From the NCBI GenBank assembly GCA_902492655.1, contig CABUMF010000007.1:1191-65190 (forward strand): a stretch of DNA of 64,000 nt, written 5' to 3'. The DNA is from an uncultured Eubacteriales bacterium. GTDB lineage: Bacteria; Bacillota; Clostridia; HGM11514. The notes beneath the pieces were generated by a model, which ran no database searches, was not told the origin of the DNA, and saw nothing but the letters and a program-made list of their open reading frames with translations. Below, one piece after another: positions 7,075 to 56,427 of this stretch. Position numbers and translations under genes: made by a program. Within the stretch, counting starts at the first letter, position 1, and the number at the start of each line of letters is the position of its first letter.

Positions 7075-7716
7075 TTACCTGCAAATGAAAATCCGTTCTG
7101 CGTCCTCCCCGGAAAGCTCGAAAATATCGGCAAAATCGTAGGAAACCGCAAACTGGCCGATAGCCCCGTCCTCACCGTAGGCGGTAACGGATGCGCAGGA
7201 AATGCCGTCAATTTCAACCGTGTCGCCGATTGAAAAAGCGATGTCCCCTTCCCAGCCCTTCATGCTCATGATGCTGCCGAAAACATCACGAATTGTCCAG
7301 GGAAGCTCGCCCCTTTCGATAACTACAGCCTTGCTTGCGTCATCGTAGGAAACAGAGCAGCCGATAGCCTCGGCAACCGCACGAATCGGCACGAAGGTTG
7401 TCCCGTTAATCACACGGACATGAGCACCGAGCTCTTTGACCTCGCCGTTGACGGTTATGTAATCGGTGTTATTTTTAAAAGTAACCTTTGTGGTGGAAAT
7501 CCATGCAACCACCGTCTGAGTGGAGCCGTACCAGTTGATTTCCGCACCGAACGCCTCTAAAATACTGCGAACGGGCACAAAAGCAACATCGTCCCAAATT
7601 TCGGAAGTAATATCAGTTTCAGTACCGTCAATTCTCACCGTCATGGCTGAAGCTGCTGTGAAAGCAGAAAAAACCAGAATGGCGGAAAGAACGAAAACCG
7701 CAATTTTCTTAAACAT
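7075..7716 (-). CDS. Secreted protein with copper amine oxidase N-terminal-like (stalk) domains
   Basis: Signal peptide MFKKIAVFVLSAILVFSAFTAASA; repeated VPIRAVAEAIG / VPVRSILEAFG motifs typical of Cu_amine_oxidN1 domain. Confidence 0.6.
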   Translation of the reverse strand: MFKKIAVFVLSAILVFSAFTAASAMTVRIDGTETDITSEIWDDVAFVPVRSILEAFGAEINWYGSTQTVVAWISTTKVTFKNNTDYITVNGEVKELGAHVRVINGTTFVPIRAVAEAIGCSVSYDDASKAVVIERGELPWTIRDVFGSIMSMKGWEGDIAFSIGDTVEIDGISCASVTAYGEDGAIGQFAVSYDFADIFELSGEDAERIFICR

Positions 7717-37204: not shown

Positions 37205-37334
37205 AATAATTATTCCTTAATCTTTCATTATTCATTTTTCACTATTCATTGAGTTCATTTTTGATGAACTCATTATATCACATAACGCTCTGAAATACAA
37301 GAATTATTTGAGGTTCGTGGCAAAAAAAGAAAGG

Positions 37335-37372
37335 GTATAGCAAAATTTCAATAAATCATTTTGCTACACCCT
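37335..37372 (-). terminator. Terminator downstream of fucO
   Basis: 14-bp stem gggtatagcaaaat/attttgctacaccc; U-run on minus strand (and weaker on plus). Confidence 0.45.
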
Positions 37373-37497
37373 CTTTTAGGGCTGAAGAAAAATAGTGCAG
37401 AATGGACAAACTGAGGCAAAACAAGATTTTTGCTTGTTTTGCGTACCCGAAGCTGTATGAGATACTGCGAGAGGCGAAGTTTGTTCATAGCATAAAG
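37369..37497 (-). repeat. B-element copy (inverted relative to 57281..57399) lying in fucO 3' UTR
   Basis: About 125 nt with about 85% identity to reverse complement of 57281..57399, including the hairpin region with compensatory changes. Confidence 0.5.
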
Positions 37498-37558
37498 TAT
37501 ATAATTTTATTCAAAATTATTGTACTTTATGCGATCTGTGCATTTTTATGCAGTCCAA

Positions 37559-38716
37559 TTACATAAGCTTGAGATAAAGCTCCTTTATTTCTTCCACGCT
37601 TGTATCCCTTGGGTTTCCGGGACGGCAAGCATCGTCGAATGCGGACTGCGCAAGGAAGTCAACATCCTCTTTCTTCACGATTTCCTTAAGGTCGGCAGGT
37701 ATTCCAACATCGCTCGAAAGCTTCTTGACAGCATCGATTGCGGCTTTCCTTGCATCCTCAAGGCTCATATCGTCCACGCCGCAAACGCCCATAGCCTTTG
37801 CGATGTCCCTGTACTTTTCGCCCGTTGCGGGAGCATTGTATTCCATAACCGTAGGAAGAATTATAGCGTTTGCAATGCCGTGGGGGGTGTCATAAAGAGC
37901 TCCCAGGGGGTGAGCCATCGAATGAACAATGCCAAGGCCTACATTTGAAAAGCCCATTCCGGCAATGTACTGTCCGAGAGCCATGCCTTCCCTGCCCTCG
38001 GTTGTGTTTTCAACCGCTCCGCGAAGGTTCTTTGCGATTATCTCGATAGCCTTGATGTGGAACATATCGCTCATTTCCCATGCACCCTTTGTGATATAGC
38101 CCTCGATTGCGTGGGTTAAAGCGTCCATTCCGGTAGCGGCGGTAAGCCCTTTCGGCATTGTTGACATCATGTCGGGGTCGACAACCGCAACAACGGGAAT
38201 GTCATGAACATCAACGCAAACCATTTTGCGGTTCTTTTGCGCATCGGTGATAACATAGTTTATGGTTACCTCAGCCGCCGTACCTGCCGTTGTGGGGACA
38301 GCGATAATCGGTGTGCATTTGTTTTTTGTGGGAGCAACGCCTTCCAGAGAGCGCACATCGGCAAATTCGGGATTTTCAACAATTATGCCGATTGCCTTTG
38401 CGGTGTCCATTGAGGAACCGCCCCCGATTGCAACAATGCAGTCCGCACCGCTTGCCTTAAAGGCAGCAACACCCGACTGAACATTTTCGATTGTCGGATT
38501 TGCCTTGATTTCGCTGAAAAGCTCGTAAGGGATTTTAGCATTATCAAGAACATCGGTAACCTTTTTTGTAACATCGAACTTGATAAGGTCGGGGTCCGAG
38601 CATACGAACGCCTTTTTGAAAGCCCTTGCCTTAATTTCGGTTGCAATTTCGTTAATTGCGCCCTTGCCGTGATAGCTTGTTTCGTTGAGAACAAATCTGT
38701 TTGCCATAAATTTCAC
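37559..38716 (-). CDS. fucO: Lactaldehyde reductase / 1,2-propanediol oxidoreductase (Fe-dependent alcohol dehydrogenase)
   Basis: MANRFVLNETSYHGKGAI... very close to E. coli FucO (MANRMILNETAWFGRGAV...) along the full length as recalled from memory. Confidence 0.85.
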   Translation of the reverse strand: MKFMANRFVLNETSYHGKGAINEIATEIKARAFKKAFVCSDPDLIKFDVTKKVTDVLDNAKIPYELFSEIKANPTIENVQSGVAAFKASGADCIVAIGGGSSMDTAKAIGIIVENPEFADVRSLEGVAPTKNKCTPIIAVPTTAGTAAEVTINYVITDAQKNRKMVCVDVHDIPVVAVVDPDMMSTMPKGLTAATGMDALTHAIEGYITKGAWEMSDMFHIKAIEIIAKNLRGAVENTTEGREGMALGQYIAGMGFSNVGLGIVHSMAHPLGALYDTPHGIANAIILPTVMEYNAPATGEKYRDIAKAMGVCGVDDMSLEDARKAAIDAVKKLSSDVGIPADLKEIVKKEDVDFLAQSAFDDACRPGNPRDTSVEEIKELYLKLM

Positions 38717-38773
38717 TCCTTTTTTTGATTAAGTTAATGTAACTTAACTATATTTTACACCGAAAAACAAAGT

Positions 38774-38791
38774 TTGTCAATATTTTGACAA
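38774..38791. promoter_or_regulatory. Palindrome TTGTCAA-tatt-TTGACAA in fucO promoter region
   Basis: Read directly; about 60 nt upstream of fucO ATG; may simply contain the -35 element. Confidence 0.25.
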
Positions 38792-38989
38792 TATTTTGTT
38801 TCATTGTTTTTAAAATAAAATTTATCACGAAGGCCACACATTTATCATTTCCCAAAAACAAACAAATACTCATGAGCAATGAGCAAAAAATTATATTTTA
38901 CGCTGTTGGTTTTAATGAACGCAAAAAAACCGCAATTTCGTGAAAAACTGCGGTTTTCTTTATGGGAAATAACTCTAATTTTGATAAAA

Positions 38990-39041
38990 TGCACCCCCCT
39001 ATAAGGAGTTTTGCACCCCCTTATAGCAAAAGTGCACCCCC
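38990..39041. repeat. Three direct repeats of TGCACCCCC spaced 21-22 bp apart
   Basis: aaatgcacccccctataagg / ttgcacccccttatagc / gtgcacccccttgttta, just beyond the 3' end of the restriction endonuclease gene. Confidence 0.4.
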
Positions 39042-39045
39042 TTGT

Positions 39046-40125
39046 TTAATACTTGGGAGACATTCCAAATATACCTGTGAGCATTTTGTAGACATTATAA
39101 CTACCCATTTTTATATCAACAGTATTTGCAACAATTCTGCACCATTGTTCAATTCGATTTTCACATATATCTTTCGCTTTCCAGTATTCAAGAAGCGTTG
39201 ACAAATTTGCATTCATGATTGTTTCGGCAATTAATTCTTTATGAGTATTTATTCTCCCGAAAGCGGCAGGCATTTTTTCGAAACACCCATTGATTGTAAC
39301 GATATCAGTTTGTCCACCCGAAGAGAATTGGTCACGAATATGTGTGTCGACAACACTGCAGTTAGAAACTAACCATAATGCATATCGGTCATATTTTGAT
39401 GTTAAGACTTCTGGAAAAAGAGCATATCCGCGAGCACGATATTCATCTTTTAACTCTTTTGAGAGAGAACCCCATAATCTTATAGTAGGAGGAGCAACTA
39501 TATCATCAGGGTTTTCATCTGCTGCCCACCACAAGCTTTCGCCTTCTCTTAATTGATTTTTATAATATTTTGACACAGGAGCAACAGGGTTCTCTAACTT
39601 CCTGAGTTTATCATATGGTATTCCCATTTTATCAAAAATGGTTTCACCGGATTTGAGTTCCATGTCAATTTGATACCGAGGATAATGTGTTACTGATATA
39701 CCCGAAAGACATTCCTCGTAAGGACGACTTTTAAATGCAACAGGAGCTCCCAACTTTCCAAATGTGAGAAAAATCCTTTCAACATTTTGATCACGTGTTG
39801 ATTCTAATATACTGCTTCCTATTGATTTCCAATGATTCTTATTGGTGCTTTTTACCTCCACACCATAAAAACGATTTACAACTATATCAGGGAACGAAGC
39901 TCCTGAAACTAACTGTATTGTACCTTCAAATGGTGTGTTCATTGCGCATCTCGTTAATGCATCACACACATCTTCTTCTAATTGTGTTCCGTTACGTCCT
40001 TTATAGTATGCCTCTCGACCTTTTGCTTCTGTATTGAGTATAGCATCGGTTTTGACCATTAAAGCTCTAAAATCTGCTAAAGATGGTTTTCTATTTTCAG
40101 ATATTATCAATACATTCACCTCCAA
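39046..40125 (-). CDS. Putative type II restriction endonuclease (PD-(D/E)xK fold)
   Basis: 359 aa, overlaps and is co-directional with a C5-MTase gene; candidate catalytic motif SFPDIVV...GVEVKS; AT-rich. Confidence 0.5.
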   Translation of the reverse strand: MEVNVLIISENRKPSLADFRALMVKTDAILNTEAKGREAYYKGRNGTQLEEDVCDALTRCAMNTPFEGTIQLVSGASFPDIVVNRFYGVEVKSTNKNHWKSIGSSILESTRDQNVERIFLTFGKLGAPVAFKSRPYEECLSGISVTHYPRYQIDMELKSGETIFDKMGIPYDKLRKLENPVAPVSKYYKNQLREGESLWWAADENPDDIVAPPTIRLWGSLSKELKDEYRARGYALFPEVLTSKYDRYALWLVSNCSVVDTHIRDQFSSGGQTDIVTINGCFEKMPAAFGRINTHKELIAETIMNANLSTLLEYWKAKDICENRIEQWCRIVANTVDIKMGSYNVYKMLTGIFGMSPKY

Positions 40126-41551
40126 AATATGTTTCCCATAAAGCTTCTATACGTTTTGCAATATGGAATCCCAGTAATGGTGGAACTGCATTTCCAATTA
40201 ATTTGTATGCTTCTGAAGCGGATACAGAATTATTTGTTGAATTGTTTCTAAAAACAAATTCATAATCATCAGGGAAGGTTTGAATGCGAGCACATTCTCT
40301 AACCGTCAATCTTCGCTCTTTTTTCCCAGTAGTTAGTTCATCCATATACGTGCCGCCGTGTTCTGTGCTTAAACGGCGAAACTCTATATTTCCGTGATGT
40401 TCCGAACGAATTGTTGGACCAATGCCATCAAGTTTAATTTCATTTTGCCCTTGACAATGTTTTCCCATAAATTTTGCTTTTGAATATTTTTGTTGTGAGA
40501 CATCGGCGGAAGCTTCTGGCTCATCTAAACCGACGAAAGCTTGCCTTAATGTTACCGGGGGCAATAAAGTTTCTCCTGAATTATTGTAAGCATGCGTAAT
40601 TATTGGATAAGGATCGTAATCTTCAGGTATATGTGTTTTTGAAAGAGCTGAAAGCGCATTCTTTGTTAAAGCTGATTTTTTAAATCCAAAGAAAATAACC
40701 CTCTCTCTTGATTGTGGTACGCCGTAATCAGCGGCATGTAATACTCTTGCAGGAACAACAATATAACCATTCTCAGAAATTGTGCTAAAATCATGTTCAA
40801 TAATAGATTTTACATCTCCGAGATTTGCAAGACCTTTGACATTTTCGGCAATAAATACTTTAGGTTGTGTTATGGCAACAACTTCACGCATCCATATATA
40901 CAACTGTCCGCGGCTTTCTACACTTGGAGCATTAACATCTACTATCTTTTTTCCGGTATGGCTTTTGTCGGAATCAAAACCTTGTCGTTTTCCAGCTACC
41001 GAAAAATCTTGGCAAGGGAAGCCACCAGTTACAACATCAATATTTTCAGGGAATACCGGCGTTCCATTTTCCTTATGTAGTTTTACAAGATCAACAATGC
41101 TATCAAGGTAATATGTGGAAGTTGAAATTCCTCTTTTTTTAAAAAAATTTGTCCAAGCAATTTTAGCATCTTCCCTAATATCGTTAGCAAAAACTGTATG
41201 AAACCTATTTTTTGGGAGATGAACCCAATTTTCGTTGACAGCGCTAACATTCCAATTTTTGTTAATTTCAGAGTTCATCGACACTTTTAGAATGTCAAAA
41301 TCACCCTCAAAACCCAAATCCATACCACCACAACCTGAAAATAAGGATAAAACATTTATTGTAGATTTTCTTGTTTGGTTTTTTGAAAGTTTATTTTGCC
41401 GTGCAGGTTTTTGCGTAGTCGAAGGAATAAACCAAACACCACTTTTCTTTGTAGCGCCATCTATACGACCCTCGTTACACAAAATTTGTACTCTTCTAGG
41501 GCTAATATTCCATTTTTTAGCAACAGATTGAACTGTAATCATTTCATTCAT
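40097..41551 (-). CDS. DNA (cytosine-5)-methyltransferase with N-terminal helix-turn-helix domain
   Basis: Motif I LFSGCGG, motif IV GGFPCQDFS, motif VI ENVKGL, C-terminal TVRECARIQTFPDDYEF...GNAVPP; N-terminal 55 aa HTH-like (WNISPRRVQILCNEGRIDGA). Confidence 0.85.
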   Translation of the reverse strand: MNEMITVQSVAKKWNISPRRVQILCNEGRIDGATKKSGVWFIPSTTQKPARQNKLSKNQTRKSTINVLSLFSGCGGMDLGFEGDFDILKVSMNSEINKNWNVSAVNENWVHLPKNRFHTVFANDIREDAKIAWTNFFKKRGISTSTYYLDSIVDLVKLHKENGTPVFPENIDVVTGGFPCQDFSVAGKRQGFDSDKSHTGKKIVDVNAPSVESRGQLYIWMREVVAITQPKVFIAENVKGLANLGDVKSIIEHDFSTISENGYIVVPARVLHAADYGVPQSRERVIFFGFKKSALTKNALSALSKTHIPEDYDPYPIITHAYNNSGETLLPPVTLRQAFVGLDEPEASADVSQQKYSKAKFMGKHCQGQNEIKLDGIGPTIRSEHHGNIEFRRLSTEHGGTYMDELTTGKKERRLTVRECARIQTFPDDYEFVFRNNSTNNSVSASEAYKLIGNAVPPLLGFHIAKRIEALWETYFGGECIDNI

Positions 41552-41884
41552 ATGTACACTCCCTATAATTCCTTATGTATATTATATTCGTTTGTGCGAA
41601 TTTTTGCAATACAATAAATGAAATTGTAACAAAGATTTTAAATAAATTCAAATTAAAGAAACGAATAATAAAGTATAAATCGACATGAACCTTTATACCA
41701 TATGAACTCTATTTAAGCCATCTGAACCCCATTACTTTCACAAGAAGCATCTAAAAACACGGAAAACCGCTTCGAATTATCTTCGAAACGGTTTGTTTAT
41801 TGTTTCACAAGTGCTGAAAAGCCTTATTTAAAGCCAAAGAACAATAACCCCAACTTTTTATCAAAGTTAGGGTTATAATTTGAG

Positions 41885-41973
41885 CGGAGAGAAAGGGATT
41901 CGAACCCTTGAACGGGTATTAGCCGTTACACGATTTCCAGTCGTGCGCCTTAGACCAGCTCAGCCATCTCTCC
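41885..41973 (-). tRNA. tRNA-Ser (anticodon GGA), class II with long variable arm
   Basis: Minus-strand GGAGAGATGGCTGAGCTGGTCTAAGGCGCACGACTGGAAATCGTGTAACGGCTAATACCCGTTCAAGGGTTCGAATCCCTTTCTCTCCG; cloverleaf foldable by eye; no encoded CCA. Confidence 0.8.
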
Positions 41974-45739: not shown

Positions 45740-48097
45740 TTATTTCAATTCCGCAATCATTGCAGACAGTTCATTTTCCGAAAATTCCGTTTCCGTGTCC
45801 GTTATTGCTATAAGCCCTCTTTCGTCCCATGTGACGGATTTTCCGAGAGCCTCAGCAATCGCGCGGAGCGGAACAAAGGTTCTCGACTCATATATCGCCG
45901 CCGGAACATCAATTTCCTTCTTTTCTCCGCCGACAGTGATGTTTTTGTCGCCTATGACTATGCTGATTTCGCTTCCCACCGACACGGTTTTTGTGTCGGC
46001 ATCCCACGAAACATCCTCGCCGAAGCTTTCCGAAATGCACCTTACCGGCACGAGGGTTCTGCCGTCAACAATCATCGGCTGAACATCATTTTCGCGTGTT
46101 TCTCCGTTAACACCGAACTTGTTCGAGCCGACAAGAAGCGTAACCGCACCTGTCATTTCCGGCTCATCTGTTCTCTTTACCTCATATCTTCCCACGGTGT
46201 CAAGGCTGAAAACCTTAAAATCGGGCAGTTTCTCTTTGATTGATGCTTCATCCAATTCAAGCTTATCGTTAACCAAATTTCTTTCTGCGAGTTCCGCAAT
46301 ATTCTCAAGCGTATTTTTGCTTTCAAAGCCGTCGCTTACAAAATCCCGATACTTATATTTCGCACGCTGTGCAATATTTTTAATCGTATTGCCCTCAGAA
46401 TAGCGCTCTTCGGTTATTTCTTCATCGCCTTCATATCGGATAAATTTATAACCTTCGCAAAGCAATATGTATTCCGAGAAAATAAGGTCATTGGTGATAT
46501 TGTTGTTGTTTGCGTTAAAGAATCCTACGCCGGCCGTTACACCTTTTATGTAATTATAGGTTATCTCGTTATTCTTTGTGCCGTAAAGCCCGACAGCATA
46601 ATCACGGCACCTTCTTCTGCCGTGTTTATACGGAATAATCTTATCTCTGCGGATACCTTCAAGAGTATATTTGTCGGTTCTAATATCGAAATTATCGTGG
46701 AAATAATTATTTGTAATCTTATTTGCTGACGTACCGTATGCAATCAGCAATACCGAACCGCCCGTTTGGTCAAGAGCACCGCTTATATCATTAAATTCAA
46801 CCGAGTTTTCATCGCCGTCCAGAACTATGGCCATATGAGCTGCGCCGTCAATTTTATTATGCGAAATTTTATTTTTGTTACCGATAATGTTTATAGGTTC
46901 ATGCTCTGTCCAGAAAAGACAGCCGATTTTTGAAAAACCGCAGTTGTCGACAGTGTTAAGGTTGCCGTCAATTAAAACCGCACCGCCGCCGAGATTATTG
47001 AAATCACAGTTATCAATTTTTGAATCATTGCATTTTTCAAGCTTTACGGCAGTATCTGATGTGTTTTCAAACTTGCAGTCCAAAATTTCTATATTCTCCG
47101 AGTTTTTTATATCAATTGCAGACCCTAAAGTATCCGAAAACTTTATTCCGCTGATTTTAATATTAGAAAGCTTATCGCCCGAAATATATGTTTTATCGTC
47201 CGCTATAAACTCAACATCCGCCGCATCGTCCTTAGGATAAATGAATACCGTGCCGCTTTCGCGATCCGCATACCATTCGCCTTTTTCGTCTATAAAAGCA
47301 ATATCGTTAACATAATACCCGGCATTCTGAGAAGAATAATACGGATCGTCCTCACTCTGCGGAATCGTATATGTAATTGTATTATCACCGTTAAATTTCA
47401 CCGGTACAAAACTTTCCTTGTTCCAAAATACGATATGGAAGTACACATCATTAAGTCCGGACAGATATTTGTCGTTAAATATAAACTTGTTTTTCTCCGA
47501 AACATCGCCTTCTCTTCTCCGCAGTTCGGTTTTTGTTCCGTCAGCGTTTTTTGTTGTATCAGCCAGCGGCATTCTTTCGGGATTTTTATCATAGGATGTA
47601 ATAATTATCGAAGTTGTATCGTATATATGTCCAAACAGAACCGGCTCTTCTTCCTCCTGCATTGCGGCAATCGGCAGATACTCGTTATTCTGAAGTGCAA
47701 CCGGATAAATACCGCCTTCCTTCATTTCACCGAGGTTTTTAATTCCTCTTACGGCTTTAACATTCTTTTTGCCGTCGGAAATCAAAATCTTATATTTTTC
47801 TTCCTTTGTTATATCTTCAAGCTTACCGGTTTCCGATGTTGAGAAAACAACATCAGCACCGTTTTCAGCCTTGATTGTTATGTTGCTTTTGTTGAGATTA
47901 ATGCTCTCGTTGTAACTGCCGCCGCGGAGCACTATAACAGAGCCGCTGTCAGCTGCGTCAATTGCCGCCTGAACCGACTCCCCCGGGGACACAAATACCG
48001 TCTTGCCCGCAGCCGAAACAGCTGTAAACGATGACGCTACCATTGCAGCACACGAAACATACGCAAGCAGTTTTTTGATTTTTTTCATAAGTTCCAC
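45740..48097 (-). CDS. Secreted right-handed beta-helix protein (candidate polysaccharide lyase/hydrolase) with two C-terminal Cu-amine-oxidase-N-like domains
   Basis: Signal peptide; PbH1-like repeats (NIKISGIKFSDTLGSAIDIKNSENIEILDCKFENT...); C-terminal VPVRCISESFG and VPLRAIAEALG repeats. Confidence 0.65.
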   Translation of the reverse strand: MELMKKIKKLLAYVSCAAMVASSFTAVSAAGKTVFVSPGESVQAAIDAADSGSVIVLRGGSYNESINLNKSNITIKAENGADVVFSTSETGKLEDITKEEKYKILISDGKKNVKAVRGIKNLGEMKEGGIYPVALQNNEYLPIAAMQEEEEPVLFGHIYDTTSIIITSYDKNPERMPLADTTKNADGTKTELRRREGDVSEKNKFIFNDKYLSGLNDVYFHIVFWNKESFVPVKFNGDNTITYTIPQSEDDPYYSSQNAGYYVNDIAFIDEKGEWYADRESGTVFIYPKDDAADVEFIADDKTYISGDKLSNIKISGIKFSDTLGSAIDIKNSENIEILDCKFENTSDTAVKLEKCNDSKIDNCDFNNLGGGAVLIDGNLNTVDNCGFSKIGCLFWTEHEPINIIGNKNKISHNKIDGAAHMAIVLDGDENSVEFNDISGALDQTGGSVLLIAYGTSANKITNNYFHDNFDIRTDKYTLEGIRRDKIIPYKHGRRRCRDYAVGLYGTKNNEITYNYIKGVTAGVGFFNANNNNITNDLIFSEYILLCEGYKFIRYEGDEEITEERYSEGNTIKNIAQRAKYKYRDFVSDGFESKNTLENIAELAERNLVNDKLELDEASIKEKLPDFKVFSLDTVGRYEVKRTDEPEMTGAVTLLVGSNKFGVNGETRENDVQPMIVDGRTLVPVRCISESFGEDVSWDADTKTVSVGSEISIVIGDKNITVGGEKKEIDVPAAIYESRTFVPLRAIAEALGKSVTWDERGLIAITDTETEFSENELSAMIAELK

Positions 48098-49596: not shown

Positions 49597-49957
49597 ACTC
49601 TCTCCTGTTATTTTAATGTCTTTAATCTTATAGTTTTGATAAATCATCCAACTCAATTTTTGGCATCATAATATTGTCATTTATTATAAACATCAGCATA
49701 TATATCGGATAATATGTTATTTTGCCAACAACCGAAACATTATAATTTGAAAGAACAAAGGCTTCTTTAACAGAATAATTTGAGATATTCAGCACATTGT
49801 TCAATGCAGAATGGCTGTTTTATTTTTTTATGGAGCATTTCACTCACCTACAGTCATTATCATACCAACATTTTGACATTTATGCAATAGATTTTTGAAA
49901 ATAAATGACATTTTTCAAATAGATTTATTTCAAATTAAGTCATTTTTCAAATCCGGT

Positions 49958-49994
49958 ATAAAAACAGAGCAGCTCCGATATGTGGGAGCTGCTC
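49958..49994 (-). terminator. Terminator of ABC transporter operon
   Basis: Hairpin gagcagctcc..ggagctgctc + U-run on minus strand after stop 50023. Confidence 0.5.
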
Positions 49995-50022
49995 CAAAAA
50001 ACATATTAATTATGGGATAAAA

Positions 50023-51078
50023 TTATCCTTCGTAAACGAGGTTATTCTTAACCATTTCGTCAACATTTTCGCTGTTCCACCAAGCACCTGCGATAGCAAC
50101 ATCCGGTGTAACTTCCTTACCCTCAGCCGCGAAAATTGCCTGTTCAACAGCCTGATAGCCGATCTGATAGGAGTCCTGAGCAACTGCGCCGATAAGCTTC
50201 GGACCGGTTGTCTTCTTCATCCATTCGATCTGCTTTGAGCCTGCGTCAAATCCGCAGAACTTAATGTCGTCATACTTTGAGCCTGCAGCGCCGATAGCGT
50301 CATAAACCTGCTTAACAACGCCTTCGTTACTCATAAAGATAGCCTTTGCGCCCTTTTCGTAAAGAGCCTCGAGAGCAGCCTTGTAAGCCTGGTCAGCATC
50401 GCCGGGCTTAACTTCCTTGGCGATTTCGTACTTGCCCTTTGTGGAAGCGTCAGCATCGGCAAGCTCTATGAACTTTTCTTCAAAGCCGCCTGCACGGTCG
50501 ATACCTGTCTGAGTTTCGTCGTGCTGAATGATACCTACAACATATGTGTCGGTAGAAGCTGCGATTTCGTCCTTGATTGCTTCAAAGAAGTTTTCGGCGT
50601 CAAGCCCTGCAGCAAGGCGGTTGCTTGTAGCAACGGAAGAAACGATAGGATTCGTTCCTGCCTTGTCAAGAGCGGCGATGTCGTTAGCCCAGATACCGCT
50701 GTCGAACTGAACAACGGGGATTTTCTCATTGAAAGCCTGAGTGAGGCTGTCAACAAAGCCTTCGCCGATAGTACCCAAAACCATAGCGGCAGGGCTGTTG
50801 TTAAGAGCTGTACTTACCATTTCCATCTGAGAGGGCAAATCCTTGGCGGATTCGCTTGCGGGGCCCTGGAAGGTTACATTGTAGCCGTATTTTTTACCTG
50901 CGTCAACTGCGCCTGCCTTAACCGACTGCCAGAAAGCGTGGGATTCGCCTTTTGCAACAACAGCGATTGTCTTACTGCCGCCGTCACTGCCTTCTTCTCC
51001 GCCGCCGCAGCCTGCAAGACACATGCAAGCGGTAACGATACAAAGAGCCAACAAGAGTACCTTTTTTAAGATTTTCAT
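50023..51078 (-). CDS. Sugar ABC transporter substrate-binding lipoprotein (PBP type I, ribose/galactose family)
   Basis: Lipobox LAGCGGG; periplasmic-binding-protein fold signature by composition. Confidence 0.75.
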   Translation of the reverse strand: MKILKKVLLLALCIVTACMCLAGCGGGEEGSDGGSKTIAVVAKGESHAFWQSVKAGAVDAGKKYGYNVTFQGPASESAKDLPSQMEMVSTALNNSPAAMVLGTIGEGFVDSLTQAFNEKIPVVQFDSGIWANDIAALDKAGTNPIVSSVATSNRLAAGLDAENFFEAIKDEIAASTDTYVVGIIQHDETQTGIDRAGGFEEKFIELADADASTKGKYEIAKEVKPGDADQAYKAALEALYEKGAKAIFMSNEGVVKQVYDAIGAAGSKYDDIKFCGFDAGSKQIEWMKKTTGPKLIGAVAQDSYQIGYQAVEQAIFAAEGKEVTPDVAIAGAWWNSENVDEMVKNNLVYEG

Positions 51079-51133
51079 TTTGGAATTCCTCCTAAATTTT
51101 TTTATTTCAGATTCTGTCAGAATCCGATTAACA

Positions 51134-52366
51134 TTATTTTATTTTTGCCTTTTCGGATATGAATGAATTTTTAAGCTGAAGCTTTTCTGAATTAAGAGCC
51201 TTAATTCTGTGCGCTCTTTCATGAGCCGGAACAGACTTGTCGGAGTATGCAATATCGAGCTTTTCCTCGATTGCGGCTTTGTTTTCCTTATATTCTCTGC
51301 GAAGCTTCTGAGCGGGAGTTTCAATCTTTACACGAGCGGCACGGTTGTTTTTAACGATGTCCATAAGCACAGCGGCAACAACGATGATACCCGTCAAAAC
51401 ATAGGTTACATAGGTTGCGTTGATGTTAACATTGAAGCGAGCGAGCACGAAGTTAAGACCGCTCCTGATAACAACAAGCATCACGCTTCCGATAACCGAG
51501 CCTGCAACGGAAGCAACACCGCCTGCGGCACTTGTACCGCCGATATAAACGCCTGCGATAGCGTCAAGCTCGTAGCCATTACCTGTTGCAGCGGCAACGG
51601 TTGTGAAGGAAGCCGACCAGAAAATAGCCGCAATACCTGCACCGATTCCGCTGAAAACATAGGCAAGCATTTTGTACTTATCCGTATTGATACCCGAAAG
51701 GCGTGTAGCCTCTTCATTTGAGCCGATTGCAAGGATATAGCGACCGGTTTTGTTTTTATACATAAGGTACATACAAATGAGCATAAAACCTACAACCCAT
51801 ATAAGCCCAACCGGGAATTTGTTGTAGTTTGAAAACAGCTTGTTGTACCAGCTTCCTGTGGGATAGAAGATGTTTGGAACCTTAACGATAATTGCGCTGA
51901 GGCCTCTTGAAAGCATCATCGTACCCAAGGTTGCGATGAATGCGGGAACCTTAAGCTTTGCAATGAGCAAGCCGTTTATAAGACCGAAAACACCGCCTAT
52001 TATAATCATAATCGGTATAACCGCCCAGAGGGGGACGATATTTAAGGTATAAAGATGACCTGCAACAACGGCGGAAGCGATACACACCGTACCGATAGAA
52101 AGGTCAATTCCGCCCGTAGCGATAACGAAGGTAACGCCGAGAGCCAAAATAGCGTAAGGAGCAAGGCTCTGCGCCATGCTGACGATGTTGTAAACCTTCA
52201 AGAAATTGGGATTTAAGATGTAGAATACCGCAATAAGAGCGATAAGGGCAAGAAGGATAATCATATTCTGTTTGCCCTTGGTGGTAACCGAATCCCAAAG
52301 CTTTGCGCCCGTCCTGCGCAGACGGCGCGCGGGGGTTAATTTGATATTTTTGTTTTCCATGTTCAT
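51134..52366 (-). CDS. Sugar ABC transporter permease (RbsC-like) with about 70-aa charged C-terminal extension
   Basis: 410 aa, about 10 TM helices, then KR/E-rich tail RVKIETPAQKLRREYKENKAAIEEK... Confidence 0.75.
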   Translation of the reverse strand: MNMENKNIKLTPARRLRRTGAKLWDSVTTKGKQNMIILLALIALIAVFYILNPNFLKVYNIVSMAQSLAPYAILALGVTFVIATGGIDLSIGTVCIASAVVAGHLYTLNIVPLWAVIPIMIIIGGVFGLINGLLIAKLKVPAFIATLGTMMLSRGLSAIIVKVPNIFYPTGSWYNKLFSNYNKFPVGLIWVVGFMLICMYLMYKNKTGRYILAIGSNEEATRLSGINTDKYKMLAYVFSGIGAGIAAIFWSASFTTVAAATGNGYELDAIAGVYIGGTSAAGGVASVAGSVIGSVMLVVIRSGLNFVLARFNVNINATYVTYVLTGIIVVAAVLMDIVKNNRAARVKIETPAQKLRREYKENKAAIEEKLDIAYSDKSVPAHERAHRIKALNSEKLQLKNSFISEKAKIK

Positions 52367-52381
52367 TTCCTCCTGATTTAT

Positions 52382-53896
52382 CTATGCAAGTTCACGCATT
52401 GTAGCGTACTTCATAATTTCTTCCTGAGTAAGCCCTTCGATAGGCAAATCCGCTGTAATTCTGCCCTCGCACATAACGATAACACGGTCGGACAGACGCT
52501 GAATTTCCGCAAGCTCGGAGGAAATCATGATAATCGACTTACCCTCCGAAGCGAGCTTTTCCATAAGCTCGTACATTTCGCTCTTTGCGCCGATGTCGAT
52601 GCCTCGGGTAGGCTCGTCGAATATGAAAATATCGGCATTTTTGAGGAGCCAGCGAGCGACGATAACCTTCTGCTGATTACCGCCCGAAAGATTTTTAACA
52701 GCCTGCTCCATTGAAGGAGTTTTGGTTCTGAGGCGTGCATTGACCTCGGCGGAAACCTTCGAAATTTCCGAATCCGAAATCCAGCCTGCGTGAATAAAAT
52801 CGTCCATGGAAGCGATTACGGTGTTTTCGGCAACGGATTTTATGAGCATAAGCCCGAACTGCTTTCTGTCCTCCGAAAGATAGCATATACCGTTTTTAAC
52901 CGCCGATTCGGGAGTTGTGATTTTAACCTTTTTGCCGCCTATGAAAATTTCTCCGGAATCGAACCTGTCAGCCCCGTAAATTGCACGGGCAAGCTCGGTT
53001 CTGCCTGCGCCCATAAGCCCTGCAAAGCCGAGAATTTCGCCTTTTTTAAGATTAAAGCTTACATTTTTAAGCGTGTTACCGGAGGAAAGATTTTTGACCT
53101 CAAGAGTAACGGGAGCGTCGCAGGGAACAAGGCTTTTTTCCTTTTGTTCGTTGTAGATAACCCTGCCCACCATCATTTTAACGAGCTCGTCCTTAGTGGT
53201 TTCCTTGGTGTTAATGGTGCCCACATACTCACCGTCACGCATTACTGTTATTCTGTCCGAAATCCTACCGATTTCATCCATACGGTGAGAAATATATATC
53301 ATGCCGATGCCCTTTTGCCTTAGATCGTTCATGATTGCAAACAATTCCTCAACCTCGGGCTGAGTCAAAGCGGCGGTAGGCTCATCTAAAATAAGAAGCT
53401 TTGAATCTCTTGAAATAGCCTTTGCGATTTCAACCATCTGCTGTTTTCCTACCGTAAGCGACCCGAGCCTTGCGGTGGGGTCAATCCTTATGCCTATGCG
53501 GTCAAAAAGAGCCTTGGCATCTTCAATCATTTTGCGGTCGTCGATAAACACACCGCCCACCTTCGGTTCCCTACCTATATAGATGTTTTGAGCAACCGTC
53601 AGATGCGCCATCATGTTAAGTTCCTGGTGAATCATGCTGATTCCGGCTTCCTGGGACTCGGCAATCGAGTTGAAATTAACGGACTTACCGAACAGCACCA
53701 CATCCCCGGCATCCCTGTGATGAATGCCGCAAAGAACCTTCATGAGCGTCGATTTTCCCGCGCCGTTTTCGCCCATAAGAGCATGAACCTCTCCGGCACG
53801 GAGATCGAAATTAACGGAACGCAGTGCATGAACACCCGAAAATCGTTTGTCAATTCCGGTCATTCTTAAAATTTCCTCATTCATCAGTTTTTTCAC
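52382..53896 (-). CDS. Sugar ABC transporter ATP-binding protein (duplicated ATPase domains, RbsA/MglA-like)
   Basis: 504 aa with two Walker A (GENGAGKST; second degenerate), signature LSGGNQQK and Walker B motifs. Confidence 0.85.
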   Translation of the reverse strand: MKKLMNEEILRMTGIDKRFSGVHALRSVNFDLRAGEVHALMGENGAGKSTLMKVLCGIHHRDAGDVVLFGKSVNFNSIAESQEAGISMIHQELNMMAHLTVAQNIYIGREPKVGGVFIDDRKMIEDAKALFDRIGIRIDPTARLGSLTVGKQQMVEIAKAISRDSKLLILDEPTAALTQPEVEELFAIMNDLRQKGIGMIYISHRMDEIGRISDRITVMRDGEYVGTINTKETTKDELVKMMVGRVIYNEQKEKSLVPCDAPVTLEVKNLSSGNTLKNVSFNLKKGEILGFAGLMGAGRTELARAIYGADRFDSGEIFIGGKKVKITTPESAVKNGICYLSEDRKQFGLMLIKSVAENTVIASMDDFIHAGWISDSEISKVSAEVNARLRTKTPSMEQAVKNLSGGNQQKVIVARWLLKNADIFIFDEPTRGIDIGAKSEMYELMEKLASEGKSIIMISSELAEIQRLSDRVIVMCEGRITADLPIEGLTQEEIMKYATMRELA

Positions 53897-54090
53897 TTCC
53901 CTTTGCGTTGAGTAATTTAACTAAAATTCTTGTCAAATCGTATACCCTTTATATCTATTTTAGCAAAAGAAACAGATAAATACAATAGATATTATTGCTT
54001 ATTTTACAGAGCAATAAAATCCTAAATTCTATTGACTTAAGGTATTATTTGTGATATTATGGTTATATAATATATAAAAAAGGTGATTGT

Positions 54091-54960
54091 ATGGCAGTTA
54101 CGCACCGCATAAACAATGAAGAACGACAGCATTATTTGCTTGAAAAGCACTATTCGCTAAAGCTCAAGCCGAATCTTATGTATGTGGGTTCACTGGAAAA
54201 AAACGTCGGCTGGAGAGAGGAGCCCCATTCCCACGATTATCTTGAGATGATTTTTATTGTTGACGGAAAAGGCACAATCACATATGGAGAAGCCGAGGAG
54301 CATGATGTATCGAGGGGAGATATTGTAATATACAACGCCGGGGTTAAGCACCATGAAAAATCCTGCGAGGATGACCCCATGGAAGCAAAATTCATAGCCT
54401 TTGACCACCTTAAAATCACCGATTTGCCGCCGAATTGGCTTTTGCCGCCGTCATACAGTCAGATATATCACACAGGCGATATGTACGATATATTCGACAG
54501 GTATTTGAATTTCATTCTCAAGGAGCTTAACAATAAGGAGCGGCTGTATGTGGAAATTTGCCAGAACATGGCAAGAACGCTTATCATGTATCTTTTCCGC
54601 CTTATAAACAAAACGGAGAAATCGGCGTGTCTTTTTGAAAACGGCAAAATGCTGGAGTCGGTTTCCGTCTACATTTCGGAGCATTATTCGGAAAATCTCA
54701 CTCTTGACGAAATTTCAAAGAACTGCCGTATAAGCAAGTATTATTTGTCCCATATTTTTTCAAAATCATACGGAAAAAGCCTTGGAAAATATATTCTCGA
54801 ATACAGGCTTGACAAAGCTCGGGATTTGCTTTCCGCAACGAAGCTTTCGGTAAGCGAAATCGCAAAGAGCGTTGGATATTCCGATGTCAGCTATTTTTGC
54901 AGATTATTCAAAAGGGAGGTCGGATTGACTCCCCTTGCCTTCCGCTCAAAAAACAGTTGA
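54091..54960 (+). CDS. AraC-family regulator with N-terminal cupin domain
   Basis: 289 aa; C-terminal AraC HTH (LTLDEISKNCRISKYYLSHIFSKSYGKSLGKYILEYRLDKARDLL...SVSEIAKSVGYSDVSYFCRLFKREVG). Confidence 0.8.
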   Translation: MAVTHRINNEERQHYLLEKHYSLKLKPNLMYVGSLEKNVGWREEPHSHDYLEMIFIVDGKGTITYGEAEEHDVSRGDIVIYNAGVKHHEKSCEDDPMEAKFIAFDHLKITDLPPNWLLPPSYSQIYHTGDMYDIFDRYLNFILKELNNKERLYVEICQNMARTLIMYLFRLINKTEKSACLFENGKMLESVSVYISEHYSENLTLDEISKNCRISKYYLSHIFSKSYGKSLGKYILEYRLDKARDLLSATKLSVSEIAKSVGYSDVSYFCRLFKREVGLTPLAFRSKNS

Positions 54961-54980
54961 AAAATCAATTGATTCGGTAC

Positions 54981-55009
54981 TTGACAGCACCGGAAAAATG
55001 ATGTATAAT
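54981..55009 (+). promoter_or_regulatory. Consensus promoter TTGACA-17-TATAAT with TG extension
   Basis: ttgacagcaccggaaaaatgatgtataat read directly. Confidence 0.5.
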
Positions 55010-55015
55010 AGCCTT

Positions 55016-55137
55016 GTAAAAGGGAGTAGCAAACGAATAATCGTTTCTGATGCGTCATTACGGCAAATTTTGCCCGCTACAGAATTAAATTGCGAGACTT
55101 TTGCTGTATTTATGCGGCAGAAGTCTCGTTTTTTAAT
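55016..55137 (+). ncRNA. Structured 5' leader (riboswitch-like) ending in intrinsic terminator, upstream of oadB
   Basis: Conserved box GUAAAAGGGAGUAGCA, two hairpins with compensatory substitutions relative to copy at 48237..48332, terminator cgagactt..aagtctcg + U6. Confidence 0.5.
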
Positions 55138-55166
55138 ATAAAAAATCATGAAAGGTGAATTTTTTA

Positions 55167-56282
55167 ATGTCTGAATTGTTTTCAAACGCAGTCAACATAC
55201 AATGGCAGCAGGTTGTAATGTGGCTTATAGGCGGTCTGTTGATTTATCTTGCAATCAAAAAGGATATGGAGCCTACGCTTCTTTTGCCCATGGGGTTCGG
55301 AGCGATTTTGGTTAACCTTCCTCTTTCGGGGGCGGTTACGCAGGGGAGCGAAAAGGGCGTAATTGATGTACTTTTTGATGCAGGCATCGCAAATGAGCTT
55401 TTTCCGCTTCTGCTTTTTATCGGAATAGGCGCGATGATTGACTTCGGCCCGCTTCTTTCAAACCCGAAGCTCATGATTTTCGGTGCTGCGGCGCAGTTCG
55501 GAATATTCTTTACATTGGGAGTTGCGTCCCTTTTGGGCTTTGAGCTTAAGGATGCGGCATCAATCGCAATCATCGGTGCGGCGGACGGTCCCACATCAAT
55601 CTTTGTTGCACAGCACTTTGCATCAAAATATGTCGGTGCAATTATGGTTGCGGCGTACTCGTACATGGCGCTTGTTCCTGTTGTTCAGCCGCCTGTAATC
55701 AGGCTTCTCACAACAAAGTCCGAAAGAAAAATCAAAATGGATTACAAGCAGAAGTCCGTTTCAAAGCTTGCAAAAATCCTTTTTCCGATTATTATTACAA
55801 TCATCACCGGAATTGTATCACCTAAAAGCGTAGCCCTGATCGGCTTTTTGATGTTCGGAAATCTCATAAGGGAATGCGGAGTGCTCGATTCGCTTTCCGA
55901 AACCGCACAGAAGGTTCTGGCAAACCTTGTAACCCTTTTCCTCGGAATAACGATAGCCACAAAAATGCAGGCGGAGCTTTTCCTCACAAAGGAAACCCTT
56001 ATGATTATAGGTCTGGGGCTTGTGGCATTTATATTTGACACCGCAGGCGGCGTTATTTTTGCGAAAGTCCTCAATCTGTTCCTCAAAAAGGGCAAGAAAA
56101 TCAACCCCATGATCGGTGCGGCGGGCATTTCGGCATTTCCTATGTCCGCAAGGGTTGTGCATAAGCTCGGGCTCGAGGAGGATAATCAGAATTTCCTTCT
56201 TATGCACTCAATCGGGGTTAATGTTTCGGGACAGATTGCGTCGGTTATCGCAGGCGGCATGATTCTTAATCTTATCAAATGA
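55167..56282 (+). CDS. oadB: Na+-translocating decarboxylase beta subunit (OadB/GcdB/MmdB family)
   Basis: MSELFSNAVNIQWQQVVMWLIGGLLIYLAIKKDMEPTLLLPMGFGAILVNLP resembles OadB N-terminus; start at ATG 55167 preferred over GTG 55155. Confidence 0.8.
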   Translation: MSELFSNAVNIQWQQVVMWLIGGLLIYLAIKKDMEPTLLLPMGFGAILVNLPLSGAVTQGSEKGVIDVLFDAGIANELFPLLLFIGIGAMIDFGPLLSNPKLMIFGAAAQFGIFFTLGVASLLGFELKDAASIAIIGAADGPTSIFVAQHFASKYVGAIMVAAYSYMALVPVVQPPVIRLLTTKSERKIKMDYKQKSVSKLAKILFPIIITIITGIVSPKSVALIGFLMFGNLIRECGVLDSLSETAQKVLANLVTLFLGITIATKMQAELFLTKETLMIIGLGLVAFIFDTAGGVIFAKVLNLFLKKGKKINPMIGAAGISAFPMSARVVHKLGLEEDNQNFLLMHSIGVNVSGQIASVIAGGMILNLIK

Positions 56283-56292
56283 GGTGATTGTT

Positions 56293-56427
56293 TTGAATAT
56301 ACAGGCATTTTTGGATACAATACCGATTATGCTCAAGGGCATGGCAGGCATATTTGTAGTTACGGTCATGATAATAATTGCAATGTATGTACTTGGCAAA
56401 ATCGGAAAAGATAAAGGAGAGAAGTAA
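56293..56427 (+). CDS. oadG: Small membrane protein, OadG-like gamma subunit (TTG start)
   Basis: 44 aa LNIQAFLDTIPIMLKGMAGIFVVTVMIIIAMYVLGKIGKDKGEK with GAGGTGA RBS 5 nt before TTG; not in ORF track. Confidence 0.5.
   Translation: MNIQAFLDTIPIMLKGMAGIFVVTVMIIIAMYVLGKIGKDKGEK

Follow-up and report, generated by a model that had tools for sequence, protein, structure and literature searches.

What lies directly downstream of the tRNA-Ser(GGA) gene on contig CABUMF010000007.1 of an uncultured Eubacteriales bacterium (assembly GCA_902492655.1), and how complete is it? The stretch of this contig that was analysed, here called the window, is 64,000 nucleotides (nt) long (contig positions 1,191 to 65,190) and is numbered from its first letter. 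Beside the tRNA gene it encodes a C5-cytosine DNA methyltransferase (MTase, gene M) and a candidate restriction endonuclease (REase, gene R), which an earlier prediction had read as a type II restriction-modification (R-M) pair left behind by a larger integrated island. Comparison with a conspecific contig that lacks both genes gives the exact extent of the inserted DNA, 38965-41880. Most probably this segment is a complete type II R-M cassette that was acquired horizontally and is itself a mobile unit, and its own MTase probably represses it.

Boundaries of the insert and its empty site

The decisive comparison was found through a homology search with the neighbouring iron-containing alcohol dehydrogenase (Fe-ADH), an identical copy of which was encoded on two kinds of contig. 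One kind is represented by contig L168, which is conspecific, agrees with the window in gene order and in 96-98% of nucleotides (about 98% in the flanks of the insert), and is without the R-M genes. Alignment of L168 with the window (blastn) matched L168 3398-7742 to 46225-41881 and L168 7741-9184 to 38964-37522, and exactly 38965-41880 is missing. The empty site in L168 reads ...TCTCTCCGCTCA up to the insertion point and TAAAGAAAACCGCAGTTTTTCACGAAATTGCGGTTTTTTTT beyond it. The features that define the insertion are:

38965-41880, minus strand: R-M cassette insert, 2,916 bp, GC 35.7%, junction ambiguous by the dinucleotide CA (blastn against L168)
41884-41973, minus strand: tRNA-Ser(GGA) gene (ARAGORN, Rfam), neighbour of the target site and outside the insert, 99% identical in the related genomes L001 and L020
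38923-38960, minus strand: native tRNA-Ser terminator, directly after the tRNA in the empty site, RNA fold -19.1 kcal/mol

The insertion point is 4 nt past the last base of the tRNA and outside the tRNA gene. The insertion parted the native terminator from tRNA-Ser and displaced it by 2.9 kb. The interval originally proposed, 38717-41973, had therefore been drawn too widely, as it also took in the native terminator, the Fe-ADH promoter and the tRNA. The occupied allele was recovered from other samples as well: contig L169 is 100% identical to the window across 11.5 kb, and L177, L178 and L179 are further occupied copies with 100% identity. The cassette is present in some strains of this gut Clostridia species and absent from at least one; ERZ27256515 is an example of a sample with it and ERZ28573902 of one lacking it.

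The composition of the insert sets it apart from its surroundings. Its GC content of 35.7% compares with 45.5% in the rest of the window and falls below that of all 553 segments of the same size (minimum 38.4%), and GC at third codon positions is 23-25% in the cassette genes compared with 52-55% in the neighbouring genes. Both outliers agree with a foreign origin of the insert. The original prediction of foreign AT-rich DNA beside the tRNA-Ser 3' end is thus borne out by the conspecific empty site. It was right that the pair is more AT-rich than its neighbours, while the figure it gave for these, about 50% GC, was too high, the actual values being 44-49%. It was also right that no integrase is present: the insert encodes M and R only.

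More distant genomes were less informative. A search of genome contigs with the KduI protein, encoded on the other side of the tRNA, found relatives only at 70-85% amino-acid identity, with the GH36-to-tRNA interval wholly replaced. The nearest species-level genomes with GH36 / tRNA-Ser / KduI-SDR-GH88 synteny were L001 and L020, in which homology to the window stops precisely at the 3' end of the tRNA on one side and at the start codon of GH36 on the other. These two genomes cannot define the insert because their whole GH36-to-tRNA interval holds other genes. The interval (37208-41882 in the window, 6197-9656 in L001, 4348-7466 in L020) differs between species independently of the R-M insert: L001 and L020 have open reading frames (ORFs) of 284 amino acids (aa) and about 510-528 aa, L001 alone has one of 186 aa, and the window has Fe-ADH. 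Judged from these alignments, the 3' flank of tRNA-Ser is a long-standing variable spot.

The methyltransferase-endonuclease pair and its predicted control

The coding and regulatory features of the cassette are as follows:

40097-41551, minus strand: C5-cytosine DNA methyltransferase, 484 aa (PF00145, TIGR00675, PADLOC MTase_II)
39046-40110, minus strand: candidate type II REase of 354 aa that starts at a TTG and overlaps the MTase gene by 14 nt
41366-41551, minus strand: MTase residues 1-62, predicted MerR/Xis-type winged helix-turn-helix (HTH; residues 1-45) and basic linker
41581-41609, minus strand: cassette promoter, -35 TTGCAA, 17-nt spacer, -10 TATAAT (10/12 matches in the promoter scan)
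41586-41601, minus strand: putative operator ATTCG-N6-CGAAT, an inverted repeat in the promoter spacer

The MTase matched the Pfam family DNA_methylase (PF00145, E 1.8e-54; residues 66-469, profile positions 2-323/324), TIGR00675 dcm in NCBIfam (E 6.5e-48) and the PADLOC model MTase_II (E 2.7e-76). Motifs I (LFSGCGGMDLGF), IV (GFPCQDFS), VI (ENVKGL), IX (RRLTVRECARIQTFPDDY) and X (GNAVPP), on which the original prediction had relied, are all readable in the translation, and so is motif VIII (QSRERV). The best solved relatives were M.HaeIII and M.HhaI, which match through the conserved motifs only; the target recognition domain (residues ~296-407) gave no alignment to either of them.

The second gene lies on the same strand, is co-directional with the first and overlaps it by 14 nt. 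The overlap had been described correctly, and the 359-aa ORF assigned to this gene does exist (39046-40125, from TTG 40125). This start is too early: close homologues and gene calls have 352-356 aa and start at TTG 40110, which is preceded by GGAGG at a distance of 8 nt and gives a protein of 354 aa. No Pfam or NCBIfam family and no useful PDB sequence match was found for it. More than 1,400 homologues were detected in gut and rumen Clostridia, and those with a source name are called 'hypothetical protein'. A scan of viral contigs for relatives of the REase found none, and there were weak matches in three deposited phages. The PADLOC REase_II model PDLC03508 matched residues 75-331 (E 5.2e-33). 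The PD...EVK signature that had been reported corresponds to P74-D75...E85-V86-K87, and these residues, together with E45, were invariant in 58 homologues (354-aa numbering). The predicted structure (pLDDT 85.3) matched EcoRV, SwaI, HincII, NlaIV, SfiI and BglI, and the protein models as an EcoRV-like PD-(D/E)XK nuclease.

The two genes are strongly associated in genomes. In 86 of the 87 related loci that were collected (L081-L167), the REase homologue was directly preceded by a homologous C5 MTase in M-to-R order, and in the single exception the REase was at a contig edge. Two of three loci found later showed the same adjacency, and the third contig opens with the 3' end of the gene upstream. 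In Klebsiella and Parabacteroides, distant homologues on plasmids adjoin dcm-type MTase genes, in one case with vsr as well. Purifying selection acts on both M and R. Compared with the diverged cassettes L082, L088 and L089, dN/dS was 0.03-0.09 for the MTase, 0.04-0.11 for its HTH part and 0.03-0.14 for the REase, all rough values since dS is near saturation. From the M-to-R adjacency, the PADLOC REase_II match, the EcoRV-like predicted fold and the purifying selection it is concluded that the pair is a predicted type II R-M system, as had been proposed.

The original prediction of an extra N-terminal HTH of about 55 aa in the MTase was also sound. A confident structural model places a winged helix at residues 1-45 and a linker up to residue 62, and the N-terminus models as a winged helix of the MerR/Xis/BldC type. 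The excisionases Pukovnik Xis, HK022 Xis, RdfS and Tn916 Xis were among its best structural matches. The match to HTH_17 was below the Pfam cutoff (E 0.003 for the whole protein and 1.2e-4 for the isolated 70 residues; 22.7 bits vs 27), a profile search of the N-terminal alignment against PDB sequences returned nothing, and a protein search with the first 130 MTase residues returned mostly gene fragments, with no names. Most MTases paired with this REase family begin at the equivalent of residue ~58-65, and the extension is found in one sub-clade only. Within that sub-clade it is conserved as MNEMITVQxAAQKWNITPRRVQILCNEGRIDGAVKKSGVWFIP, followed by the basic linker. Two other loci (L156, from 2536, and L158, from 4457) have the same MTase and REase families with another N-terminal extension, XRE-like by eye (MTFGSFLKELIKNTGRSQSDFYQELGIKKAYFYDIVSGRTNPPP...). 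It seems from these sequences that a DNA-binding domain was fused to this MTase family more than once, independently.

The promoter of the cassette is conserved along with this domain. All HTH-bearing relatives keep it as TTGAAA-AAGTTCGCACAAACGAA-TATAAT, with a spacer of 17 nt (N17), and between HTH-bearing loci in otherwise unrelated contexts similarity starts exactly at the -35 box. Within the spacer, about 50 nt before the ATG, is the inverted repeat TTCG-N6-CGAA, the arms of which are invariant and the 6-nt centre of which is variable (CACAAA, TACAAA, TAAAAA, TGTAAA, CTTGAA). It was present in 10 of 10 HTH-bearing contexts (the window, L081, L082, L088, L089, L091, L092, L093, L182 and L183), including the more diverged L182 and L183, with 66% and 58% identity in the first 130 residues of the MTase, and was missing from every locus without this domain that was readable through the MTase start. 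In L182 (1215-2665), the MTase is split into ORFs of 222 aa and 266 aa and the REase has 311 aa; this copy is possibly decaying, with promoter and operator still kept.

An N-terminal HTH is the established means of MTase autorepression in SsoII/Ecl18kI, EcoRII, MspI and ScrFI (PMC2760811, PMC3874152). In M.SsoII/M.Ecl18kI, M.EcoRII, M.MspI and M.ScrFIA this domain binds a palindrome that overlaps the enzyme's own promoter (PMC2760811, PMC3978073, PMC3874152). The strict co-occurrence of TTCG-N6-CGAA with the HTH domain supports SsoII-like autorepression in the cassette, and the MTase plausibly represses its own promoter. The idea of the HTH as a built-in controller is therefore a plausible one, given a conserved inverted repeat in the promoter spacer that co-occurs perfectly with the domain. 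A controller of the C-protein type was looked for among the coding-strand ORFs of at least 50 aa, which are M, R and a 55-aa out-of-frame ORF nested in M, and no separate controller gene with C-boxes was found among them; the insert's remaining listed ORFs, which run along the other strand and overlap M or R, did not enter this search. The non-coding arms of the insert (329 nt and 81 nt) hold hairpins and repeats only.

Taken together, the cassette would be a single operon in the order promoter, operator, M and R. The MTase would methylate a cytosine-containing site, and the REase would cut unmethylated copies of that site. As MTase accumulates, its N-terminal domain would bind TTCG-N6-CGAA between the -35 and -10 boxes and repress the operon, a logic shared with M.SsoII, M.Ecl18kI, M.EcoRII and M.MspI. 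On the tRNA-proximal side, two hairpins may insulate the operon from read-through of the strong tRNA promoter.

Ends of the unit, related cassettes and mode of acquisition

The ends of the insert carry sequence features of their own:

41856-41876, minus strand: left (tRNA-proximal) terminal inverted repeat (TIR) ATAACCCTAACTTTGATAAAA, 4 nt inside the insert end, 19/21 matches
38969-38989, plus strand: right TIR ATAACTCTAATTTTGATAAAA, 4 nt inside the other end, kept in L081
41844-41876, minus strand: element-borne terminator-like hairpin directly after the tRNA, holding the left TIR, -18.6 kcal/mol, z -6.05
41764-41794, minus strand: second terminator-like hairpin in the left arm (terminator scan), -17.4 kcal/mol, z -4.46
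41681-41728, minus strand: direct repeat (A/G)GTTCAnnT(G/C)G in three copies, upstream of the promoter, read from the sequence
38990-39041, minus strand: GGGGGTGCA motif, present three times in tandem units of 21-22 nt that lie between the stop of the REase gene and the right TIR (3 vs 0.31 expected)

The terminal pair is the longest inverted repeat in the region (21 nt, 19/21), and its two copies are the only two matches in the 64-kb window, compared with an expectation of 0.01. The end motifs of the cassette are ATAACYCTAAYTTTGATAAAA and TTATCAAAATTAGAGTYATTTCCCA, and the right end of the insert reads ...TTTTATCAAAATTAGAGTTATTTCCCA. The two junctions share the dinucleotide CA only, which leaves room for a target duplication of at most 2 nt or for junction microhomology. 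No tRNA-derived direct repeat was found at the far boundary, and no integrase, transposase or gene fragment in the insert.

A second occurrence of the same right end was found in L081, a Logan contig from another metagenome. Its cassette is 99% identical and ends ...GAGTCATTTCCCA, with one GGGAGTGCA unit instead of three, and beyond the right end there is a different terminator and a different gene. The same right end with a different flank indicates that this is the same element at a second site. The tandem unit containing GGGGGTGCA, in three copies in the window and in one in L081 (~2650-2665), is variable in copy number. Among the fetched loci, the TIR motif occurred only in the window element and in L081, with no matching transposase. 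The repeats upstream of the promoter are less constant: L088 has analogous but different ones, and L093 has none.

Several related HTH-bearing cassettes are in intergenic regions between housekeeping genes, as in the window: those of L082-85 follow tRNA-Ser(TGA), that of L088 follows tRNA-Pro(GGG) and is upstream of an EF-G gene, and that of L089 is between GH3 and fn3 genes. Others are associated with mobile genes. In L091 a TnpV gene (Pfam) is directly upstream of the cassette; in L092 the upstream side has an AAA_25 gene and an ORF judged TnpV-like by eye, without confirmation from Pfam, and the downstream side has an AbiJ-like gene; and in L183 integrase, NikA, AAA_25, TnpV and Mob_Pre genes precede the MTase. 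Among HTH-less relatives, L086 is in a phage-like region and L174 is beside a resolvase. A tRNA in the same orientation within 500 nt upstream was found in 3 of 7 HTH-bearing contexts and in none of 29 others (Fisher p = 0.005, on small numbers). A search for TIRs and direct repeats around the related cassettes found only one case, L093, where the cassette is flanked by two perfect 33-bp copies of a terminator hairpin in direct orientation (AAAAAGCTGTCTGATTTTTCAGACAGCTTTTTT; 4477-4509 and 7083-7115).

How, then, did the cassette reach its present site? That it is the remnant of a larger integrase-borne island in tRNA-Ser, whose integrase and other genes were later lost, was the original proposal. 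The tRNA 3' ends are classic integrase targets, the tRNA bias of the HTH-bearing contexts fits such an origin, and related cassettes are found at the end of an integrase/NikA/AAA_25/TnpV/Mob_Pre element or, in L091, directly after a TnpV gene. Against this, the extra DNA relative to the empty site is exactly the 2,916-bp cassette, consisting of promoter, M, R and short ends; the insertion is 4 nt after the tRNA and not within it; the 3' end of the tRNA is not repeated at the far boundary; degraded mobility genes and other pseudogene fragments are lacking from arms that are made up of hairpins and short repeats; and the inverted repeats at the ends are found nowhere else in the window. An insert with its own ends and with neither an integrase nor a tRNA repeat is a complete minimal cassette rather than a decayed island, and the island proposal, largely refuted, is now very improbable. 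A stronger competitor, though still one to be doubted, is arrival with no transposon-like mobility at all: uptake by transformation or conjugation followed by illegitimate or microhomology recombination, with the TIR a by-product of a terminator hairpin. The 2-nt microhomology at the junctions, a left TIR that is half of a stable hairpin, the other cassettes of the clade that are without TIRs, the terminator duplication around the L093 cassette (a form discussed in PMC2853133), and the lack of matching TIRs or a transposase in the window or the fetched loci all agree with this. What it does not explain well is that a 19/21 inverted repeat, of which 0.01 are expected in 64 kb, is found 4 nt inside both mapped ends, and that the same right end was used at a different site in L081.

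Other explanations concern what the cassette does. The pair may no longer be a working R-M system, the REase being inactive or attenuated and the locus amounting to an orphan regulatory or protective methyltransferase. Cleavage is a prediction; the REase, with its TTG start and its overlap with M, is probably weakly translated; and the M gene of the relative L182 is frameshifted. Nevertheless, the REase in the window is full length with intact and invariant catalytic residues, its dN/dS against diverged cassettes is low (the range given above), and copies 99-100% identical occur in several samples, so that loss of function is improbable. The Xis/MerR-like domain might instead serve recombination or mobility, acting on the subterminal repeats in the manner of a directionality factor, and not transcriptional control. 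Its likeness to excisionases, the direct repeats near both insert ends and the restriction of the tRNA bias to the HTH-bearing clade speak for such a role. Yet the only sequence that strictly co-occurs with the domain is the palindrome in the promoter spacer, in a classic repressor or MerR-type position; the subterminal repeats are not conserved between cassettes, the upstream ones being absent from L093; and no recombinase partner is encoded. This role is given little credence. A more speculative combination receives no more: the cassette as a minimal non-autonomous or self-mobilising transposon-like element, in which TIRs, subterminal repeats and the Xis/MerR-like domain direct insertion near tRNAs or terminators, and the winged helix is both repressor and architectural or directionality factor.

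The reading preferred here, a complete and MTase-autorepressed cassette that moves as a discrete unit with 21-nt imperfect TIRs and no mobility gene, would also have to accommodate several points that weigh against it. The HTH_17 match is below the Pfam cutoff, and the model of the HTH was made from a single sequence. Where one promoter serves an M-to-R operon, autorepression reduces both genes at once, which leaves unexplained the M-before-R timing of divergent SsoII-type systems, and the promoter scan found no internal promoter for R above chance. The state of L168 could be due to precise loss and not be the ancestral empty site. The TIR overlaps a hairpin, from which part of its symmetry could stem, and the other cassettes of the clade do not have such TIRs. 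The R-M activity, finally, is predicted from the genes themselves. The window unit probably moved in trans or by illegitimate recombination; it may have been carried by a trans-acting transposase or integrase, or have entered by illegitimate recombination close to hairpins.

Neighbouring genes and comparison with known systems

The tRNA-Ser(GGA) gene is the only tRNA in the 64-kb window (ARAGORN, 41884-41973, minus strand). Rfam placed it at 41885-41973 with 56.6 bits, and the Rfam scan of the region found nothing else above threshold. A consensus promoter at 42020-41992 drives it (promoter scan). The genes adjoining the insert are metabolic, with GH36 and Fe-ADH on one side and KduI followed by SDR and GH88 on the other. 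The Fe-ADH, which is FucO-like and lactaldehyde-reductase-like, starts at ATG 38707 and has 382 aa, as in all database homologues; the GTG at 38716 in the mechanical ORF list is too early as its start.

Two further regions of the window stand out in comparison with related contigs. The segment at 49935-56363, which encodes a sugar ABC transporter (Peripla_BP_4, BPD_transp_2, ABC_tran), an AraC regulator and OAD_beta, is 94.6% identical at the nucleotide level to L020 (JAXGBA010000022), whereas the syntenic genes around it reach just 72-78%, a contrast that points to recent transfer or recombination from one species to another. Within the 785-aa ORF at 45740-48097 (NosD/Beta_helix and Cu_amine_oxidN1), positions 46730-47790 are 82% identical or unalignable to L168, compared with 98-99% in the flanks, and the L168 gene encodes 744 aa. 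This beta-helix protein is strain-variable and probably surface-exposed.

The cassette itself belongs to kinds of system that are already known, namely mobile R-M units and type II 5-methylcytosine R-M systems in which the MTase provides the autoregulation. It leaves current concepts unchanged and, though well documented, is essentially an ordinary mobile bacterial defence module. Notable here are an REase family unannotated in Pfam and NCBIfam, which adds a large family to the annotated set, and a controller domain with a predicted MerR/Xis-type fold. The locus also illustrates neatly how an R-M system in nature behaves as a discrete mobile unit: one species has occupied and empty alleles, the junctions are known to the base pair, and the unit has ends of its own and no mobility gene. 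Strain-variable R-M cassettes shape the phage susceptibility and the genetic tractability of gut anaerobes.

The predicted REase would resemble the EcoRV-like (beta-class) enzymes in its modelled core fold and in its putative catalytic constellation E45 / D75 / E85-x-K87, which parallels E45 / D74 / D90-x-K92 of EcoRV. A fold of this type would point to cuts that are blunt or leave 3' overhangs. The protein differs from these enzymes in that sequence identity is only ~10% and in an extra helical C-terminal half (residues ~210-354) that has no match.

As a mobile unit, the cassette is closest to the transposon-like R-M units that have imperfect inverted repeats of 26-65 bp and target duplications of 8 bp (PMC2853133). 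Like them, it is made up of R-M genes and nothing else, its imperfect terminal inverted repeats belong to this unit only, a related genome shows the clean empty site, and no transposase is linked to it. Unlike them, it has repeats of 21 nt and a target duplication of at most 2 nt, and it abuts a tRNA and its terminator. Insertion of R-M systems accompanied by a lengthy duplication of the target has also been described (Furuta, Abe & Kobayashi 2010, PMC2853133), and this is the form that the L093 relative shows, with 33 bp. With the tRNA-targeting integrative islands and mobilizable elements the cassette shares its position as foreign AT-rich DNA 3' of a tRNA gene, and its relatives travel on integrase/TnpV/Mob elements. 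In contrast to such islands, the insert in the window is without an integrase, lies outside the tRNA, and is without a direct repeat of the att type.

In its regulation, the cassette is most like SsoII/Ecl18kI. The points of likeness are a C5 MTase with a DNA-binding extension of ~60-70 residues (predicted in the window) and a flexible linker, a palindromic operator (putative in the window) that overlaps the M promoter and is distinct from any C-box, and the lack of a separate C protein. There are three differences. SsoII, Ecl18kI and MspI are divergent, whereas M and R in the window are co-directional and overlapping, and thus the activation of R by promoter competition, as in Ecl18kI, cannot apply. 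The operator in the window is short (4-5-bp arms, 6-bp centre) and in the spacer between -35 and -10, a MerR-type position, whereas that of SsoII is an inverted repeat of 15 bp. The domain itself models as a winged helix of the MerR/Xis/BldC type, which is counted as a difference from the SsoII group. If the predicted control holds, the design of an MTase with a built-in repressor also arose with a MerR/Xis-type winged helix and in an operon that runs from M to R.

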